From positions 17,241-81,240 of the forward strand of contig JBHLPF010000007.1 in NCBI GenBank assembly GCA_048939765.1: 64,000 nucleotides of DNA. The letters are read 5' to 3'. Below the pieces are notes generated by a model. The model did not search any database, was not told where the DNA came from, and saw only the letters and a program-made list of their open reading frames with translations. Origin of the DNA: Promethearchaeota archaeon. Lineage in GTDB: Archaea > Asgardarchaeota > Thorarchaeia > Thorarchaeales > Thorarchaeaceae. The translations under genes and the position numbers were made by a program. This document shows positions 18,920-50,601 of the stretch, one piece after another (positions within the stretch are counted from its first letter, which is position 1; every line of letters begins with the position of its first letter).

Positions 18920-19028
18920 TGGTGGGCCGGAGGAGATTCGAACTCCTGATCCCCTGGAGACCTGCTTGCAGACCTGATGGTCACCAAGTCCCAAACCAGG
19001 AATCATAGCCAAGCTAGACCACCGACCC
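18920..19028 (-). tRNA. tRNA-Pro (anticodon UGG) with a roughly 31-nt canonical (37/38) intron, CCA encoded
   Basis: Acceptor GGGTCGG/CCGGCCC, anticodon stem CCTGG/CCAGG, loop TTTGGG-x interrupted at about 18959-18989, T arm AGGAG-TTCGAAT-CTCCT, then A-CCA. Confidence 0.85.
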
Positions 19029-36741: not shown

Positions 36742-37179
36742 CTAGAGGTCCAATGTGAATCTGAGCGTGGTACGATCCGCTCCCTGTTCAATACTCATAT
36801 CTGCATATGTCATGGCCTTCACTTCTGTCCGTGTATCTTGACGCTCAAGATCGATATCCTCACCCCATATTCGACCATTTAGAGCAAAGCCCTCAGTATC
36901 TCTGGAAATCTTTTGAACCTGGAACTTGGAATAGAACTGAGAGTTGATGTCGATGAGTGCTATGAGATGACCAATCCATTCCACCAGAAGCTCCTCAATA
37001 TCAATCCCGTGCACCGTTACATCAATGGATTCGACAGGCTGAACTGTCGATGTATCCAATATCACCTCTAATGCTCCAAGTGCCGCCTCCTCAAATGCCT
37101 CTTCCAGAGTTGGAGCCCAGCACTCTACTGTGATGTCAGCTGTGTGATCATGATACTTGAAACCGCGCTCGCCTGTCAT
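36742..37179 (-). CDS. Archease (RtcB ligase cofactor)
   Basis: 145-aa ORF starting FKYHDHTADITVECWAPTLEEAFEEAALG, with C-terminus EVKAMTYADM. Confidence 0.85.
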   Translation of the reverse strand: MTGERGFKYHDHTADITVECWAPTLEEAFEEAALGALEVILDTSTVQPVESIDVTVHGIDIEELLVEWIGHLIALIDINSQFYSKFQVQKISRDTEGFALNGRIWGEDIDLERQDTRTEVKAMTYADMSIEQGADRTTLRFTLDL

Positions 37180-37241: not shown

Positions 37242-37357
37242 GCCGAGGTAGCCAAGCCCGGATTACGGCGCTGGTCTTGAAAACCAGTTTCTTCGGAAGC
37301 ATGAGTTCAAGCAATTCCACAAAATGTGGATTGGAACAAATCTCATCCTCGGCGCCA
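37242..37357 (+). tRNA. tRNA-Ser (anticodon UGA) with a 29-nt non-canonical intron in the T-loop, CCA encoded
   Basis: Acceptor GCCGAGG/CCTCGGC, 3-bp D stem, anticodon stem CTGGT/ACCAG, loop CTTGAAA. The long variable arm has a TTCG loop. The T stem ATGAG/CTCAT encloses TTCA[AGCAATTCCACAAAATGTGGATTGGAACA]AAT. The intron spans about 37310-37338, and the junction is ambiguous because CAA is repeated at both ends. Confidence 0.8.
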
Positions 37358-37360
37358 TTT
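37337..37360 (+). repeat. Direct repeat copy 1 (tRNA-Ser 3' end, CAAATCTCATCCTCGGCGCCATTT)
   Basis: 24-nt segment covering T-loop, T-stem, acceptor, CCA and 3 further nt. It recurs at 38098-38121 and, in degenerate form, at 39223-39240. Confidence 0.8.
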
Positions 37361-37444
37361 CTTCTATGTCTGTTTAGGTTAATCTCTATGAGGGCTTATT
37401 TCAAAATTCACAAAGTCTTTCCTTTATTTTAGATTGATATATGC

Positions 37445-38014
37445 TTAGCATTCAGATGTTTTGTGTAAAAAGAACTTCTTTTCAGCTTTATAGGGAGGAT
37501 AAGAGAATAATTCGATATGGGCTATCTGTACTATGAAAGGATTCGTAATCTGTAAATCAAGGTAATCTTGGGAAATCTCCACTGCCTTAGCTATTTCCTG
37601 AGTTGGGAGGTCTAATAGAAGGGTCACATGTGGACTCCACATACTATCTGGTTTTCGATCCAAATCTACTCCTTGGTCTTCTAATGTTTCCAAGCAGAGT
37701 TTTCGTAATGATTGAAGATTGCTTGAATATTGTGGATTAAGATAGAAAACATGGCTGGCAGGAAACGTAGTCAGACCGGTAAATTCCAGTGAAAAGGAGT
37801 TAGAATTAGAAATTGCAGATTCCAATGCATCATAGTATTCTTGTTTTCTTAATTCTTCATGTTCAAGTAATGTAATGTGGGGTGGCACTCGCACATATGT
37901 TTGACCATGCAAATCTGGAGAATCATTCAGGATTTTCTGTAATTCTTTCAACTTGTTAGTTGATGCTTCATCAAAACAAGCAATTATCCCAGTCCAAAAA
38001 TCCATGGTCCTCAA
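37445..38014 (-). CDS. 2H phosphoesterase superfamily protein (LigT / cyclic phosphodiesterase-like)
   Basis: 189-aa ORF with two H-x-T-x motifs (PPHITLLEH and SPHVTLLLD). The gene is markedly AT-rich compared with its flanks. Confidence 0.65.
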   Translation of the reverse strand: MRTMDFWTGIIACFDEASTNKLKELQKILNDSPDLHGQTYVRVPPHITLLEHEELRKQEYYDALESAISNSNSFSLEFTGLTTFPASHVFYLNPQYSSNLQSLRKLCLETLEDQGVDLDRKPDSMWSPHVTLLLDLPTQEIAKAVEISQDYLDLQITNPFIVQIAHIELFSYPPYKAEKKFFLHKTSEC

Positions 38015-38097
38015 CTTAGATAATCCAATTCAGTTCAAAGAACCTTAAGGGGTGCCTTAAGGTTTCCGAGAATGAAGGACCAGTAGTATAAGGCATT

Positions 38098-38121
38098 CAA
38101 ATCTCACCCTCGGCGCCATTT
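38098..38121 (+). repeat. Direct repeat copy 2 (orphan tRNA-Ser 3'-end fragment, CAAATCTCACCCTCGGCGCCATTT)
   Basis: 23 of 24 nt are identical to 37337-37360. It is preceded by TT, completing an intron-less T-loop TTCAAAT. No matching 5' T-stem or other tRNA parts lie upstream. Confidence 0.8.
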
Positions 38122-38172
38122 AACTCTCGAAAGCTTGATTTTGCAGAGATGCAGAGAATAGTCGGTGTTTGG

Positions 38173-39162
38173 ATGGTTGAGTGTTTTGTCACAGGGGGCA
38201 CCGGATTCATTGGGAGCCACATTGTCCGTCTACTGACTGAAAGAGGCGATCACGTTAATGTGTTAGTACGCAAGACGTCGAACATGGAATTGATTGAGAA
38301 TCTACCGGTTTCTAAAGCTGTGGGAGATATCACGGATATTGATAGCATGGCGAGCGGAATATCGGATCACACAGAATGGTTCTTCCATAATGCGGCCCGG
38401 ATGTCAGAATGGGGCGGGAAGGCTAGAAACTGGCCTGTCAATGTTGAAGGGACTCGCAACGCCTTAGAGGTGGCCCGAAGAAAGGACGTTCCACAATTCA
38501 TCTATACCTCATCGACCGCCCTCTATGGGTTTCCTGGAAAGCCGATGACAGAGGACTCTCCGAGAAGGCCATACGAGTCGTACCAGCAGTCAAAGCTTGC
38601 AGCAGAGGAATTGGTATGGAAGTATTCACAGGACTACGGAATCAGGGCTACGGCAGTTAGACCACCAACGGTAGTGGGCCATGGCGATATGTACCTAGGT
38701 CCGATACTTATCGAGGCAGTGAGATCTGGAACATATGTGCACTTGGATGGTGGGAAGAATCGTCAGAGCATTGTGCATGGCGAAGATGTTGCACGGTGCC
38801 TAATCTTGGCTGCAGAGAACTTTGGAAAAGCCCATGGAAATGCATACAATGTCACATCCTTCATTGTTGAGATGCGGGTCTTCATAGAGGCTCTGGCTGA
38901 CGAACTTGGAGTACCAAAGGACTTCCGGAGTATGCCCTACAAAGCTGCACTTGCTGTCGGAAAGGTCACATCAGGTTTGTTTCGAGCCTTTCACCGTAAG
39001 GAAAGCCCCTTCCTGACAGCTTTTCGCGTGAAGTACATGGGCAGCGACTATGTAGTTGATGACTCAAAGGTGCGCCAAGAGTTGGGGTATAAACCACGGT
39101 GGAACCTAGAAACCACAGTTAGAGACATGGTTGAGTGGGGAGGAGAATTCAAGCCTCGATAG
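38173..39162 (+). CDS. NAD-dependent epimerase/dehydratase (extended SDR)
   Basis: Has VTGGTGFIGSHIVRLL at the N-terminus and YxxxK (YQQSK). The track ORF starts at 38149; the Met at 38173 gives the usual spacing. Confidence 0.85.
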   Translation: MVECFVTGGTGFIGSHIVRLLTERGDHVNVLVRKTSNMELIENLPVSKAVGDITDIDSMASGISDHTEWFFHNAARMSEWGGKARNWPVNVEGTRNALEVARRKDVPQFIYTSSTALYGFPGKPMTEDSPRRPYESYQQSKLAAEELVWKYSQDYGIRATAVRPPTVVGHGDMYLGPILIEAVRSGTYVHLDGGKNRQSIVHGEDVARCLILAAENFGKAHGNAYNVTSFIVEMRVFIEALADELGVPKDFRSMPYKAALAVGKVTSGLFRAFHRKESPFLTAFRVKYMGSDYVVDDSKVRQELGYKPRWNLETTVRDMVEWGGEFKPR

Positions 39163-39222
39163 AAACCAAGGCGCTTTTGCAGAGTCTTGTGAGTGTTAGG
39201 CTATTGCTTTCCTAGATTCCTC

Positions 39223-39240
39223 TCTCACCCTCGGTGCCAT
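39223..39240 (+). repeat. Direct repeat copy 3 (degenerate tRNA-Ser 3'-end fragment, TCTCACCCTCGGTGCCAT)
   Basis: 17 of 18 nt are identical to copy 2. It shares the C variant (CTCACCC) with copy 2 rather than with the tRNA (CTCATCC). Confidence 0.65.
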
Positions 39241-39340: not shown

Positions 39341-39712
39341 TTGCGTGGTGGTATTGCTATGAATAGGTTTCAGCGGACGAAGGCCGTACCTGAGCACATA
39401 GGATATGCCGTGGTACCAAAGCCGCTCCTGAAACGCTTCATCTTTTTGAGGTCGATGCGTTGTGCAGTTTGCGTTGCGCTAGCATTCTTGCTGCTTCTGC
39501 CTCTTACAATATTACCCGGACTAGTGGTTTTGGTGCTTCCCGCGGAGATTACCCTGGTTGGAAGAATTCAGGATGAAGCAGAACTTGTTCTTTGGGTGCG
39601 GAGTAATATGATCACTCAGGCAGGCACTTGGGAAGATGCTGAGTTAGAAAGCGAAATGGTTCGTCTAAGGACCCATGACAGACCTCGTGCTGTACAAGAC
39701 TACTCACGGTAG
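39341..39712 (+). CDS. Hypothetical membrane protein
   Basis: 123-aa ORF with one long hydrophobic stretch (VALAFLLLLPLTILPGLVVLVLP). The start is uncertain (ATG at 39359). No family recognised. Confidence 0.35.
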   Translation: MRGGIAMNRFQRTKAVPEHIGYAVVPKPLLKRFIFLRSMRCAVCVALAFLLLLPLTILPGLVVLVLPAEITLVGRIQDEAELVLWVRSNMITQAGTWEDAELESEMVRLRTHDRPRAVQDYSR

Positions 39713-39781
39713 ATAACACAGTAGTTTCCTATGGCTTGGGAATCTCGCCTAGTCTGAGTAAGGTAGCAGCAATCCTTGTCA

Positions 39782-40399
39782 TTAATTGGTCAAAAATACC
39801 ATTATGGCCAAGACAAAGTAGTAGACCTGATAGGAACTGACCATAAACCTCTCGATCAGACCGAAATAGCTACTTGTGGCTGTAAATGACGAGATAATGA
39901 CAAGAATCAGTGAAACTATTGCCGTAATCAGCGAAAATGTCGCAAAAGCACTCCATTCGAATACCGATTCTAATCGGAACCACATTGCCACCATTCCTGC
40001 AGTCGCCAATATTCCTGAGATTGCAATCAGGGTGAGGTGCAGCTTTCCACGGACAGTAACAATCTCACCACCAGCATCAAGAGGGAAGAATAGAGCGACA
40101 AGCACTCCAAGGAGCCCACTGATTATGAATAAGATAGGCCCAATTATTGAGCCTACTCCATTATTCACTCCCCAATGAAGACCAAGGTAGAAGACGAAAA
40201 GAAGGGTGCTAGATGTAATGATGAACTTGTCAAACAGCTTCTTGTTAGGAGCATCAACTGCCATGAGTGAGCTGACATCATCTCGAACGTGACTGTAATC
40301 AGGCTGGATAATTCCTCCAATGATCCACATTAGAGTATAGATGATTGGACTCAGCATTCCGCAGATTGCTAGAATCTGAAATAGATTCATGACTATCAT
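39782..40399 (-). CDS. DUF998-like membrane protein
   Basis: 205-aa polytopic ORF. CGMLSPIIYTLMWIIGGIIQPDYSHVRDDVSSL resembles DUF998 N-termini (from memory). Confidence 0.55.
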   Translation of the reverse strand: MIVMNLFQILAICGMLSPIIYTLMWIIGGIIQPDYSHVRDDVSSLMAVDAPNKKLFDKFIITSSTLLFVFYLGLHWGVNNGVGSIIGPILFIISGLLGVLVALFFPLDAGGEIVTVRGKLHLTLIAISGILATAGMVAMWFRLESVFEWSAFATFSLITAIVSLILVIISSFTATSSYFGLIERFMVSSYQVYYFVLAIMVFLTN

Positions 40400-40414
40400 T
40401 CAACCCGTGCCACA

Positions 40415-41686
40415 TTAGGCGTTTAGATTCTCAATAACAGTGGCAACGCCCTGTCCGCCACCAACACAGGCATTGGCAACTCCATATTTCGCGTTATTCT
40501 CTTTGAGAATTCTTGCCAGAGTGCCGGTCAACCTGATCATGGTTGAACCTAGAGGATGTCCAATCGCAGTGGAACCACCCATTACATTCACCTTCTCCTC
40601 CGGAATGTTCAGTTTATCCATGCAGTTGAGTGCAACAATGCAGAAAGCCTCATTGATTTCCCAGTAGTCAATGTCCTCGACGCTTAATCCTGCATGCTTG
40701 AGGGCCTTTTTGGTGGCAGGTACAGGTCCACGACCCATCACAGTTGGATCGACTCCAGCCCATCCCATGGAAACAATCCTTGCCATTGGCTCCGCACCTC
40801 GCTTTTCAGCCTCCTTTGCCTCCATTATGACCGCGGCAGTAGCACCTGCATTGAGAGGCGAGGCATTGCCCGGTGTAATCACTCCCTCTTCAGTCCCTTC
40901 TCGCTTGATATAGCCCTCTTTTCCACCATTCTTCTCAAGGAAGAAGGGGATTGATACTCTTGGGAGAGTTGAAACCTTCTCAAGTGTTGAGGGTCGTGCA
41001 CTCAGATCCCTGTCCACCAACATGGGTTCGTCAACATTGCCAGGTGTATGTCCCTCAATAGGGATAATCTCCCCCTTGAACCATCCACTCTCCTGATTCT
41101 TGACTGTTAGATTGTGACTTCTCACACCGAATTTGTCCATGTCCTCCTTGGTAAAGGTGGGAACCTCTTCCTCGTACAGCTTCTGGGCTGTCTGTAACAT
41201 GTTGAACACTGTCGCGGGGTCCAGGCCGGGTCGGTAGAACTCTGAAGCCTCGTCAGCAAAAGACAGGTTAGGTTCGACTCCCTTCCCCCTCACTCGGGTC
41301 ATATGCTCAAATCCCGTTGATAGCACGGTTTTGCTGTACCCGGTCATAATCTCCATGATACCAATATGCATTCCAGAGCCTGCAGACCCACACTGACGGT
41401 CGACAAAGATAGATGGAACATCATGTGGAAATCCTGACAGGAAGGCTGGAATCTTGCCCCCATAGGTCCAGTTCTCAAGGACTCCGGCGGCCACACCAAT
41501 GGTGATCTCATCGATGTCCTTCTTCTCAATTCCTTTGTTCGCCAATGAACCATCAAAGAATTTCATCAGCAACCGTGATAGGAGCTCATCTCCCCTAATC
41601 TCACCAAAGGCGTCAGTTTCTGGCTTATTGGGACGCGATCGTGAGAATGGGGTACGCACATAATCGACCAGCCAAACTTCTTTCAT
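40415..41686 (-). CDS. Thiolase (acetyl-CoA C-acyl/acetyltransferase)
   Basis: The C-terminal NACVGGGQGVATVIE and GHPLGSTMIRL are thiolase signatures. The start is taken at MKEVWLVDYVRTPFSR; the track ORF extends to 41737. Confidence 0.9.
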   Translation of the reverse strand: MKEVWLVDYVRTPFSRSRPNKPETDAFGEIRGDELLSRLLMKFFDGSLANKGIEKKDIDEITIGVAAGVLENWTYGGKIPAFLSGFPHDVPSIFVDRQCGSAGSGMHIGIMEIMTGYSKTVLSTGFEHMTRVRGKGVEPNLSFADEASEFYRPGLDPATVFNMLQTAQKLYEEEVPTFTKEDMDKFGVRSHNLTVKNQESGWFKGEIIPIEGHTPGNVDEPMLVDRDLSARPSTLEKVSTLPRVSIPFFLEKNGGKEGYIKREGTEEGVITPGNASPLNAGATAAVIMEAKEAEKRGAEPMARIVSMGWAGVDPTVMGRGPVPATKKALKHAGLSVEDIDYWEINEAFCIVALNCMDKLNIPEEKVNVMGGSTAIGHPLGSTMIRLTGTLARILKENNAKYGVANACVGGGQGVATVIENLNA

Positions 41687-41728
41687 GGCTTCCCCAGAAG
41701 GACTTCTGAGTTTTAACTCTTCTTTCGA

Positions 41729-42565
41729 ATGGAGCATGAAAGAGGATTTATCTCACAGGACGCCCTCCAACAGCTCATGCCCAGGGTCCTGATACATGAC
41801 ATTGAAACCTACTATGAAATAGCCGGCGAGGGAGAAGCAATCGTGTTTGTTCACGGCGCAGCTGGTTCTCACGACAACTGGCGCCCTCAGGTTAAGCACC
41901 TGTCCGACCGCTTCGAAGTCGTGACATACGATATAAGGGGACACGGGAAGTCAAGTGGGTCTGACAGGAAATATAGCTGTGAGCTCTTCGCAGATGATCT
42001 GAATGGGCTGATAACCGCACTCGAGTTAGAAAGACCCGTTGTCTGTGGGCTCTCTCTTGGAGGGATGATAGCCCAGCAGTACGCTGTAAGGCATCAGTCC
42101 GGTCTTGCGGGACTTGTACTGGCGGACACTGCAGTGGCCTCAGCTCTGACCCTCTCAGACAAGCTTCAGAAATGGATGTTCCCAGTGAGCCTGGTCAAAT
42201 GGTATATTCGCAGAAAGACTCCAGAAGACTATGCGAGATGGTCATTCAAGTATTTCGACATGAAGGATGATGTGAGAGAGTATCTGATTCAGGAACAACT
42301 TCGAATGGATCAGACAGAGTTTCTCAAACTGATGGATGCCATCTATGGGTTTAAGCTGCTTGACCTTGCCAGCATCAAAGTGCCAACGCTTGTGGTACTG
42401 GGTGAGAATGAACGAAAGGCAGTCTTTCCGCATGCAGACAAGATGATAGAGCTGATTGAGGGCTCAAGGAAGGTCGTTATTCCGGATGCTGGACATGCCT
42501 CCAATCTAGAGAATCCCACCGAGTTCAATCGAGTGCTTGACGAGTTCTTGGAACACGTGTTCTAA
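41729..42565 (+). CDS. Alpha/beta hydrolase fold protein
   Basis: Has VFVHGAAGSHDNW, the nucleophile elbow GLSLGG and DAGHASNLE. The start may be at 41777. Confidence 0.8.
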   Translation: MEHERGFISQDALQQLMPRVLIHDIETYYEIAGEGEAIVFVHGAAGSHDNWRPQVKHLSDRFEVVTYDIRGHGKSSGSDRKYSCELFADDLNGLITALELERPVVCGLSLGGMIAQQYAVRHQSGLAGLVLADTAVASALTLSDKLQKWMFPVSLVKWYIRRKTPEDYARWSFKYFDMKDDVREYLIQEQLRMDQTEFLKLMDAIYGFKLLDLASIKVPTLVVLGENERKAVFPHADKMIELIEGSRKVVIPDAGHASNLENPTEFNRVLDEFLEHVF

Positions 42566-44160
42566 ATCTTCTTCTCGAGATAGGGTCCTGTATCGTTGAA
42601 ATCAAGGGCGCGATAATATTCCTTGACTCCAATTCCGCTGTTCACAATCAGCCTGTTGACTTGGAAATCCTCGAGTGTGATTCGCTCTGCCTCTTTGAGC
42701 ATGCGGTCTCCAAGACCCAAATGCTGCCACGCATCCGGGTTCCTCTCACCAATCTCTACAACAGGACCATACACTCTGAGCTCTCTAATAATGGCGCAGG
42801 GGCTATGATTAATCTCGGGGCGGTGAGCCTGGTCACTGGGCATGCGGAGTCTGAGGAATCCAAAGATGATATCTTGACTTTGCTTCTCGAAGGAAAGAAA
42901 GATTTCTAGGCCATCTGCAGCCTCATAGTCACGACGCACCAGCTCAATACCTTCAAAACTCACCTTTTGTCCGGTCCGCATCTGAAAGTGACCAATCTCT
43001 CTGTATCGAATCGTTGGGTTTCTCAGACCTTTCTCACTCATTCGATGATGCACCAGCTCTCGTAGGTTTCCTTTGCTGAAACCAGCCTCTATCTGATGGA
43101 GTGGGATGTCCCTCTGCATCCTCTGGATACGAACATACTCGGGCATTTTGCTGACTGCATTAGAGACGAGTTCCACGACTTGATCATCAGAATAGGGACT
43201 GTATATTCCCTGTTCCCACCACTCGAACAGCTTTGTATTCTTCACCACAAGCGTAGGATAGATCTTCAGCATATCTGGTTGAAACCTAGAATCAGTGAAT
43301 AATGCTTCAAAGTCTTCAAGGTCAGAGTCTGAAGTATTTCCAGGTAGACCAGGCATCATATGATAGCACACTTTCAGTCCGCTATCCCTGAGCATCTTTG
43401 TCGCTTGGATGGTCTGTTCAAGCAGATGACCTCTCTGTACCCGTTCTAGGACCTCATCCGAGAGCGTCTGAACACCGATTTCCACACGGGTAGCACCCAT
43501 TTCCAGCATGCTATCGATGCTTTCAGGAATCACCCAATCCGGTCGAGTTTCGAATGTGAGACCTACGTTGCGGACCTTAGCTGTTTCGTTCGTCTTCTGT
43601 GACTCATTCAAACTCCCTCCGACTGTCCTATTCATTGCATCGAAACAGCCCTTGACAAAAGACTCCCTGTAGTCAGGCTCCTTCGAACACCAGTCGCCAC
43701 CCATGACTATTAGTTCCACCTTTTGGACCGAATGACCGATCGTATCCAACTGATTTAGCCTGCTCTCTACCTGCCTGAATGAATCAAAGTCATTTTGCAG
43801 CCCTCTCATTGTGGCAGGTTCATGACCTGTATAGCTCTGGGGAACTCCTGCATCAGGCCCACCAGGACAATATGCGCACGCACCATGAGGACACTTATGA
43901 GGTTCTGTCATGACAGCAACAACAGCGACTCCGGAAACTGTACGAACAGGTCGTTTCTGCATCAGAGGCTGAAGTATTTCTAGCTCTTCAGGAATTGCCG
44001 CTTGCAACACGTCTGCGTTTGATGGGACTCGGGACGCCTTATGCAGTCCACAGATCCTGCTCTTGATTTGATTTATCTCACGCCGATCAAGAGCCGTTTC
44101 TGAGCTAAGAAGGGATTCGATAATCTCTCTATACAGTGCATAGTAATCTGGGAGAGGCAT
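42562..44160 (-). CDS. elp3: Elp3-type radical SAM + GNAT tRNA U34 modification enzyme
   Basis: 532-aa ORF with PHKCPHGACAYCPGGP, a radical-SAM TIM region and a C-terminal GNAT (HLGLGDRMLKEAE). Confidence 0.9.
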   Translation of the reverse strand: MPLPDYYALYREIIESLLSSETALDRREINQIKSRICGLHKASRVPSNADVLQAAIPEELEILQPLMQKRPVRTVSGVAVVAVMTEPHKCPHGACAYCPGGPDAGVPQSYTGHEPATMRGLQNDFDSFRQVESRLNQLDTIGHSVQKVELIVMGGDWCSKEPDYRESFVKGCFDAMNRTVGGSLNESQKTNETAKVRNVGLTFETRPDWVIPESIDSMLEMGATRVEIGVQTLSDEVLERVQRGHLLEQTIQATKMLRDSGLKVCYHMMPGLPGNTSDSDLEDFEALFTDSRFQPDMLKIYPTLVVKNTKLFEWWEQGIYSPYSDDQVVELVSNAVSKMPEYVRIQRMQRDIPLHQIEAGFSKGNLRELVHHRMSEKGLRNPTIRYREIGHFQMRTGQKVSFEGIELVRRDYEAADGLEIFLSFEKQSQDIIFGFLRLRMPSDQAHRPEINHSPCAIIRELRVYGPVVEIGERNPDAWQHLGLGDRMLKEAERITLEDFQVNRLIVNSGIGVKEYYRALDFNDTGPYLEKKI

Positions 44161-50463: not shown

Positions 50464-50601
50464 TGGTGGGGCGAGTGGGATTTGAACCCACGATCGACGA
50501 GTGTCTTCTACGACGACGGTCAGCGTTTTGACCCTGCTATTCAGACGCGAAATGCATCTAGATCTGGAGCCCGTCGCCATGCCGGACTAGGCCACCGCCC
50601 C
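50464..50601 (-). tRNA. tRNA-Trp (anticodon CCA) with a roughly 61-nt canonical (37/38) intron, CCA encoded
   Basis: Acceptor GGGGCGG/TCGCCCC, anticodon stem ACGGG/CTCGT. The loop CTCCAG-[intron, about 50503-50563]-A is interrupted. T arm GTGGG-TTCAAAT-CCCAC, then A-CCA. Confidence 0.8.

Follow-up and report, generated by a model that had tools for sequence, protein, structure and literature searches.

Copies of a tRNA-Ser(UGA) 3′ end bracket single-gene units in a Thorarchaeota genome: probable scars of serial insertion

Introduction

Archaeal viruses and plasmids integrate at tRNA genes and leave an intact tRNA gene at the proximal border of the foreign DNA (PMC3293823). Here, we analyzed a comparable arrangement in a 64,000-nt stretch of contig JBHLPF010000007.1 (assembly GCA_048939765.1; hereafter, the window), in which a tRNA-Ser(UGA) gene is followed by two further direct copies of its own 3′ end, with a 2H phosphoesterase gene (unit 1) between copies 1 and 2 and an SDR epimerase gene (unit 2) between copies 2 and 3. 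These units share with the archaeal elements the insertion at a tRNA gene, the restored tRNA, and the presence of foreign DNA. Elements of the SSV and pNOB8 types, however, measure several kilobases to tens of kilobases, with an integrase gene that is either intact beside the tRNA or split across the attachment (att) site copies, whereas the units in the window are 0.7 to 1.1 kb long and contain one gene each and no integrase or integrase fragment. An SSV-type split integrase was looked for with PF16795 and gave no match, and the open reading frames (ORFs) lying by the copies are the 2H and SDR genes.

Three further systems are similar in part. Like the units described here, the ssrA islands of Dehalococcoides (PMC3146451) are arranged serially downstream of one small-RNA gene, have direct repeats of about 20 bp from its 3′ end and an insertion point in the T-loop, and in some cases are without an integration module; genes at the distal side may represent old islands with eroded repeats, for which the thiolase, DUF998, and hydrolase genes in front of the ELP3-like gene are the counterpart at our locus. 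Most of these islands, however, carry a serine recombinase module (DsiB) and are at least 10 kb in size, while in the Asgard host no unit has a recombinase and most consist of one gene. Cis-mobilizable elements (CIMEs), known from accretion at tRNA genes in Streptococcus (PMC5704250), are likewise att-flanked units devoid of recombination and transfer genes, but they are mobilized by a related integrase-bearing element in the same array, and no such partner was found at tRNA-Ser in 68 loci. Finally, integron cassette arrays also consist mostly of single-gene units that end in a short site, vary between close relatives, and are exchanged between lineages. The tRNA-Ser array is nevertheless not an integron; neither IntI nor attI is present, the repeated site is a tRNA 3′ end rather than a folded attC, and genes occur in either orientation (2H on the minus and SDR on the plus strand). 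As for a free-standing homing-endonuclease cassette, no endonuclease gene lies inside the two units of the window, although HTH-HNH genes are found in units of six relatives.

Thus, tRNA integration scars and tandem islets are a known kind of feature, here in a little-studied lineage, and the locus is unusual only in that tiny, integrase-less inserted units recur as exchangeable cassettes across a family. In two papers on Asgard mobile elements (PMC8813620, PMC11529989), we found no account of such arrays.

Results

Three direct copies of the tRNA-Ser 3′ end

The source genome is a Thorarchaeota (Asgard) metagenome-assembled genome (MAG) of 3.37 Mb in 108 contigs, with 47% GC and an estimated completeness of 88.5%. 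Its tRNA-Ser(UGA) gene, the insertion target, occupies positions 37242 to 37357 on the plus strand and encodes the CCA end. The unspliced gene was missed by ARAGORN and by Rfam, the latter giving only a partial tRNA match. A 29-nt intron interrupts the T-loop at 37309 to 37337 (plus strand); its placement is ambiguous by up to 2 nt, with four equivalent positions between 37308 and 37339. After excision of the 29-nt insert, ARAGORN returned an 87-nt tRNA-Ser(tga) fold with the encoded CCA, and the proximal border of the insertions is therefore a regenerated, intact tRNA.

Copy 1, the end of the live gene (37337 to 37360, plus strand), comprises the 3′ part of the T-loop, the 3′ strands of the T-stem and of the acceptor stem, the discriminator base, CCA, and TTT. 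The corresponding 24-mer, CAAATCTCATCCTCGGCGCCATTT, occurs exactly at this position and with one mismatch (23/24) at 38098 to 38121, whereas shuffled sequences gave an expectation of 0.00. A shorter 18-mer, TCTCACCCTCGGCGCCAT, is present on the plus strand at 37341, 38102, and 39223 (0.04 expected from shuffles). Copy 2, TTCAAATCTCACCCTCGGCGCCATTT, extends two bases further to the left and runs from 38096 to 38121 (plus strand), from an intron-less T-loop through CCA and TTT, with the genus-typical CTCAC T-stem strand; since TTCAAAT is uninterrupted at 38096 to 38102, it matches the intron-less form of the tRNA at 25 of 26 positions. Copy 3, TCTCACCCTCGGTGCCAT, at 39223 to 39240 (plus strand), differs from copy 2 at one position (17/18) and is followed by the original trailer, the same sequence that follows the single extra copy in the closest relative. 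No other copies were detected in the 3.37-Mb genome at up to one mismatch, looser matches being other tRNA genes, and no further degenerate copy lies between copy 3 and the downstream ELP3-like gene at up to three mismatches.

The structure is not an assembly artifact, because another MAG carries the same tRNA-2H-SDR arrangement (99.9% identical over 11.3 kb) and a Logan contig from a raw run reproduces it with 100% identity over 37267 to 38307. A strain-level look-up by exact protein returned identical arrangements only.

Empty and occupied sites in relatives

To compare alleles, 40 relatives were searched with 5 kb of the tRNA-Ser locus, and the informative ones were fetched and oriented. 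In the closest relative (G002, about 90% identity), the archease gene, the tRNA, the 2H unit, and copy 2 are followed directly by the sequence that lies after copy 3 in the window. This genome thus lacks the SDR unit plus one copy exactly, the left side of copy 2 being joined to the right side of copy 3. Sites lacking both units were found in G015, G009, G007, G010, G003, and G021, so that the empty sites for which the initial annotation had proposed to look do exist in related genomes, for unit 2 in the former case and for both units in the latter.

Further relatives were informative as well. In G005, the SDR unit ends in a perfect copy and then the trailer CTTTTCCGATAATAG, which in G015 stands directly after the tRNA. 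The tRNA lies 6 nt from a DUF998 gene in G007, and in G004 and G011 a nitroreductase unit plus a copy occupies that place, followed by the same trailer. Similarly, the tRNA adjoins the ELP3-like gene in G003 and G021, and a 2.1-kb unit plus a copy intervenes in G018. Single-gene units with the same borders against the copies were also found in other genera (2H, DUF4760, and nitroreductase). Alleles of this kind are what insertion at the tRNA-end copies, or deletion between them, should produce, and there is good support for reading the copies as marks of discrete units inserted serially at the 3′ end of the tRNA.

Unit 1 is foreign and of low GC content, and unit 2 is native in composition

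Unit 1 (37361 to 38095) is about 735 bp long and is also present between tRNA-end copies in G002, G020, and L037. Its sole gene encodes a 2H phosphoesterase on the minus strand (37445 to 38014; PF13563, E = 4e-17), with a probable ATG at 38005 that yields the 186-aa protein annotated in the sister assembly; both HxT motifs (PPHITL and SPHVTL) are intact. The segment has a GC content of 0.365, which corresponds to the 0.01 percentile of 760-nt windows in this genome (mean 0.470, SD 0.022), and its 3-mer profile is an outlier as well. At the DNA level, the 2H gene is 84 to 88% identical to genes in Asgard MAGs of 31 to 34% GC (labeled Hodarchaeota, Promethearchaeota, and Hermodarchaeota). The homology is confined to the gene; the 2H loci of those genomes share no flanks, and none has the tRNA repeat. 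Compared with the best match in our genome, the 2H protein shows 80 to 84% identity, while the proteins encoded by its neighbors in the low-GC MAGs show 22 to 45% (59% in one case). This disparity indicates a recent transfer of the 2H gene from a low-GC lineage, in agreement with the GC anomaly.

In every low-GC Asgard genome inspected (L036, L039, L040, L042, and L057), the context of the 2H gene is different and the DNA identity of 84 to 88% does not extend past the gene, which therefore appears to move on its own. No convincing direct repeats surround it in the low-GC genomes, the protein had no matches in viral contigs, and among metagenome contigs it was found on a single low-GC contig without a tRNA. 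Next to tRNA-Ser, it was seen at 3 of the 68 loci of the family survey and, in addition, on contig L037, which was fetched separately. Two ideas about this gene were discarded. The unit is not always adjacent to the tRNA, as the newest cassette of an integron would be, for the 2H gene of L037 is preceded by a non-tRNA copy. A functional link among 2H, archease, and the intron-bearing tRNA was likewise rejected, given that the archease-tRNA pair is family-wide and the 2H gene so rare that its position by archease looks accidental.

Unit 2 (38122 to 39222) is about 1.1 kb long, has a GC content of 0.493, which is ordinary for this genome, is missing exactly in G002, and occurs in G005 with the same right-hand copy. 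The only gene between copies 2 and 3 encodes an SDR/NAD-dependent epimerase-dehydratase on the plus strand (38173 to 39162; PF01370, E = 1e-39), of 329 aa when counted from the second ATG, as in the gene model of the sister assembly; its best NCBIfam match is HpnA-like and falls below the cut-off. The SDR unit, at least, brings its own upstream region.

Taken together, these data fully confirm the observations of the initial annotation, which had noted that the end of the tRNA-Ser gene recurs twice in the same orientation, that copy 2 preserves an intron-less T-loop, and that an AT-rich 2H phosphoesterase gene and an SDR epimerase gene are the only genes of the two segments. A composition scan, which it had recommended, set apart segment 1 but not segment 2.

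The tRNA allele and its T-loop intron

The live tRNA gene resembles that of another genus. It is 94% identical to the gene of G082 over all 116 nt, and its intron is homologous to the T-loop introns of that genus. Its variable arm is likewise of that kind, and its T-stem (ATGAG/CTCAT) is of the type of another genus, while copies 2 and 3 have the genus-typical CTCAC. This allele pattern fits a scenario in which incoming DNA gave the gene a new 3′ part and displaced the old 3′ end.

The initial annotation had further suggested that the intron disrupts the att site. According to PMC3293823, the proposal that tRNA introns protect att sites goes back to Randau and Söll. At this locus, three results leave it without support. 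First, the sister genome G002, which lacks the intron and otherwise has the same tRNA allele, carries the same 2H unit beside its intron-less tRNA. Second, extra copies are present in 12 of 26 loci with a T-loop intron and in 11 of 42 loci without one, although these counts are not phylogenetically independent. Third, the last 6 nt of the intron are contained in one of the distal copies of G056, and thus an intron-bearing allele did recombine.

Among the close relatives, tRNA-Ser(UGA) genes have zero, one, or two introns and range in length from 87 to 150 nt (the window and 67 family loci). Within the intron that follows the anticodon stem, an alternative, second variable arm is often found together with a D-loop-like CCAAGCC stretch, so that this intron looks like a piece of a tRNA copy.

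A family-wide zone of insertion between tRNA-Ser and an ELP3-like gene

For the family survey, 68 tRNA-Ser(UGA) loci were gathered via the conserved archease gene, which in the window is the left neighbor of the tRNA (36742 to 37179, minus strand; PF01951, E = 6e-38) and which lies beside tRNA-Ser in 72 of 86 family genomes. On the other side, 21 loci belonging to many genera have a convergent ELP3-like radical SAM/acetyltransferase gene at a distance of 19 to 103 nt from the tRNA. In the window, this gene (42562 to 44160, minus strand) is 5.2 kb away. Archease, tRNA-Ser(UGA), and the ELP3-like gene are thus a conserved family trio, and the layout in which the tRNA is directly followed by ELP3 was taken as ancestral, ELP3 being the ancestral right neighbor. 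Since the tRNA abuts ELP3 in 21 loci of many genera, the acquisition of units postdates the origin of the family. Between copy 3 and ELP3, the genes for orf123, DUF998, thiolase, and an alpha/beta hydrolase (39341 to 42565) are variably present among genomes; they also look like older accretions whose recognizable copies have been lost.

Extra copies were scanned for downstream of the tRNA on both strands, using the 3′ 17-mer of each genome's own tRNA and allowing up to three mismatches. The 68 loci yielded 30 copies, every one of them in the orientation of the tRNA, with 0 on the opposite strand. At least one extra copy was present in 23 loci, the longest array (G056) having five in series, and most distal copies begin at T54/T55 of the T-loop. 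The cargo of the units includes nitroreductase, DUF4760, DUF6992, LRR, TPR, and membrane proteins, as well as a TIR protein with an OLD-type ATPase-nuclease. An HTH-HTH-HNH-HNH protein (PHROG HNH endonuclease, E = 1.5e-12) is encoded by the ORF that comes first after tRNA-Ser in six genomes; its gene is not found in the two units of the window. The loci concerned are L046, L048, L056, L033, L059, and L062, in one of which the units also include the TIR protein and the OLD-type nuclease. Our genome has a distant homologue of the HNH protein (34% identity) at C53:186-1130, in the C-terminus of a 977-aa acidic protein whose gene adjoins that of a HerA-like ATPase on an 8.6-kb contig.

Phylogenies of the nitroreductase cassette were mostly congruent with the archease tree, except that the cassettes of G006 and G056 fell inside another genus. 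Genus monophyly, which archease supports, was rejected for the nitroreductase cassette by approximately unbiased (AU) tests (P = 0.007 and 0.016); these tests were framed after the tree had been seen, with the genus labels fixed beforehand.

Similar arrays exist at other tRNA genes of the same genome. At C36:41-5453, the 3′ end of a tRNA-Gly(GCC) gene recurs three times downstream (+303, +1518, and +5288), and these copies bound a TPR gene and a unit with an Lrp regulator and an ABC transporter. On C12 (reverse strand), a tRNA-Asp(GUC) gene has one perfect 3′-end copy at +1387. No integrase is present at either array. Another serine tRNA, in L055 (G047:C1:226000-233000), has the 3′ end TCTCTCCCTCAGCGCCA, with a perfect 27-nt copy 3.7 kb downstream; this copy bounds two metabolic-looking genes (417 and 552 aa), and the genome, G047, is without a detectable recombinase.

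Searches for a recombinase and a free element

Among the units bounded by the 30 downstream copies, no integrase or recognizable integrase fragment was found in those whose ORFs were read (0.3 to 4 kb). PF00239 was missing from seven of the nine relatives tested. The whole genomes of G000, G002, G005, G015, G020, G047 (a single contig), and G056 gave no match to PF00589, and thus no XerA-type recombinase is detectable in these seven. The absence is not absolute, because the source genome is 88.5% complete; the no-recombinase result is consistent, though weakened by MAG incompleteness and by the poor binning of mobile elements. Elsewhere, in L106 (G016:C413, 6154 to 8871), a tyrosine recombinase gene lies between two direct repeats of 26 nt that share 96% identity and are separated by about 2.7 kb. 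No tRNA is located close by, and this locus may be a minimal integrase-only element.

Discussion

Proposed mechanism and competing explanations

We interpret the three copies as junction scars of two successive insertions of small units at the segment from the T-loop to the 3′ end of tRNA-Ser(UGA), and estimate the probability of this interpretation at roughly 60%. Each incoming unit would carry its own copy of the segment; recombination would give the tRNA a new 3′ end adjoining the unit and push the former 3′ end, together with the original trailer, to the far side. With respect to the order of the two insertions, we infer that the distal bound of the SDR unit would be the oldest copy (copy 3 with the native trailer), and that the 2H unit would be bounded by copy 2, which would have kept the genus-typical CTCAC while the live tRNA received the CTCAT-type 3′ part of another genus. 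On the scale of the family, the interval from tRNA-Ser to ELP3 would then act as a growth zone, in which integrase-less cassettes of one or a few genes accumulate, are lost precisely between copies, and are exchanged between genera. The enzyme is most likely a site-specific recombinase that a non-resident element provides in trans, since most distal copies begin at T54/T55. The units, moreover, were most likely small and integrase-less already on arrival, because they have the same borders across genera, those read contain no integrase remnant, and the homology to the donor is gene sized.

Several results weigh against this interpretation. In our genome, neither PF00589 nor PF16795 had a match, and PF00239 gave one sub-threshold match only (17.6 bits; cut-off, 23.3), so that a search for integrase genes, a check proposed at the outset, came out negative. 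PF00589 was also missing from 6 of 12 array-bearing relatives, including a single-contig genome, and the integrases that do occur in relatives lie near neither tRNA genes nor att copies; at ten such loci, about 10 kb of surrounding sequence contained no tRNA gene, and no att site of the tRNA type was seen. The att 23-mer TTCRAATCTCAYCCTCGGCGCCA had 0 matches in viral contigs, from which the 2H gene is missing too. In addition, the genus has the SDR unit, with an unchanged left border, at two loci without a tRNA; the homology there corresponds to 38124 to 39239 of the window, and one of the two loci keeps a degenerate copy 3. Considering its native composition and these loci, the SDR unit derives from the gene pool of the genus and has moved more than once. 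The tRNA itself differs from those of the nearest relatives upstream of the T-loop as well (the 5′ strand of the T-stem, the variable arm, and the intron), and for a foreign-like tract that reaches beyond the repeat, a longer exchange is an easier explanation than a crossover restricted to the T-loop. Finally, the cassette order seen across genomes could equally reflect an older array from which units were differentially lost.

The main rival, though in our view an improbable one, is insertion driven by homology without any integrase, in which a fragment or circle flanked by tRNA-Ser sequence would recombine through the tRNA body on the left and the 17- to 26-nt copy of the 3′ end on the right, either by pop-in and pop-out or by gene conversion. 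A double-strand break made by the HTH-HNH protein may stimulate such events, in the manner of intron-less homing. The lack of a tyrosine or serine recombinase in this genome and in several array-bearing relatives is in line with this possibility, as is the precise loss between copies in G002, which is expected from recombination at short homology. The whole tRNA gene, intron included, resembles the alleles of another genus and departs from those of the nearest relatives from the variable arm onward, which suggests a conversion tract extending beyond the repeat, and in six genomes the tRNA is followed first by the HNH endonuclease gene. The units in the window, however, do not contain the HNH gene, and the sole homologue in this genome is distant and located on another contig. 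Furthermore, the copies start regularly in the T-loop, which is the hallmark of a site-specific att, as for ssrA in Dehalococcoides (PMC3146451). Homology-driven insertion also leaves unexplained how the first unit acquired a tRNA 3′ end and presupposes that homology of 17 to 26 nt is efficient enough in these organisms. We favor insertion by a recombinase acting in trans.

Weaker still is the explanation that two full-size, integrase-bearing elements, viral or plasmid, integrated in series and that each decayed to a single cargo gene. This would be the standard fate of archaeal tRNA-integrated elements of the SSV and pNOB8 types (PMC3293823), it accommodates the repeats and the restored tRNA, and it predicts the absence of an integrase; mobile elements are, besides, under-represented in MAGs. 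Independent decay should nevertheless lead to differing borders, while those of the 2H, DUF4760, and nitroreductase units are the same across genera, and an integrase, or a recognizable piece of one, is missing from all the units read. Homology of the 2H unit to its likely donor lineages covers the gene only, and the SDR unit, native in composition, is also found elsewhere on chromosomes of the genus. Accordingly, the original proposal of serial integration into the tRNA end stands with regard to discrete, stacked insertions, as demonstrated by the empty sites in G002 and others, but finds no support with regard to the loss of an integrase and of the remainder of the elements.

A last explanation, that nothing was inserted recently and that genomes differ only by losses between the copies of an old, longer, vertically inherited array, is very improbable: it agrees with the consistent order of shared units (2H before DUF4760 before SDR or nitroreductase), with the nitroreductase tree that mostly follows archease, and with the identity of the 2H unit between the window and G002 (92%, compared with 90 to 91% in the flanks), but that unit has kept a GC content of 36.5% and matches genes of distant low-GC lineages with 84 to 88% identity, which by itself argues against loss as the only process, vertical descent is rejected by the AU tests for two nitroreductase cassettes, and the direct contact of tRNA and ELP3 in 21 loci of many genera places the gain of units after the origin of the family.

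We also considered a broader and rather speculative concept, to which we attach little confidence, namely, that tRNA genes (Ser, Gly, and Asp) could serve Thorarchaeota as an integron-like gene-capture platform without a resident tyrosine or serine recombinase, into and out of which single-gene cassettes would move and through which they would pass between genera. The agent might then be an unrecognized recombinase or nuclease, for which the HTH-HNH protein at the head of some units is a candidate, or the 17- to 26-nt tRNA homology itself, and the polymorphic T-loop intron could interplay with it.

Implications

How Asgard archaea acquire genes is little understood, and the locus provides a defined place at which genes have entered repeatedly, with empty and occupied sites that can be matched exactly across 68 genomes. 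It includes a clear case of recent gene movement between distant Asgard lineages, along with arrays of integrase-less units in genomes without a detectable standard recombinase. If the cassettes are actively mobile, tRNA-anchored arrays would give genes a simple way to spread within the closest lineage to eukaryotes and would offer a natural test of whether tRNA introns guard integration sites. If they are not, the arrays would be an ordinary, well-documented set of integration scars.

Additional observations on tRNA genes

In L019 (G009), a degenerate 5′ portion of tRNA-Ser (oriented coordinates 1713 to 1896) is located about 180 nt upstream of the real tRNA-Ser gene. Two further tRNA genes of the window, tRNA-Pro(UGG) at 18920 to 19028 and tRNA-Val(GAC) at 50464 to 50601, were missed by ARAGORN with default settings; both are intron bearing and were recovered with its intron option.

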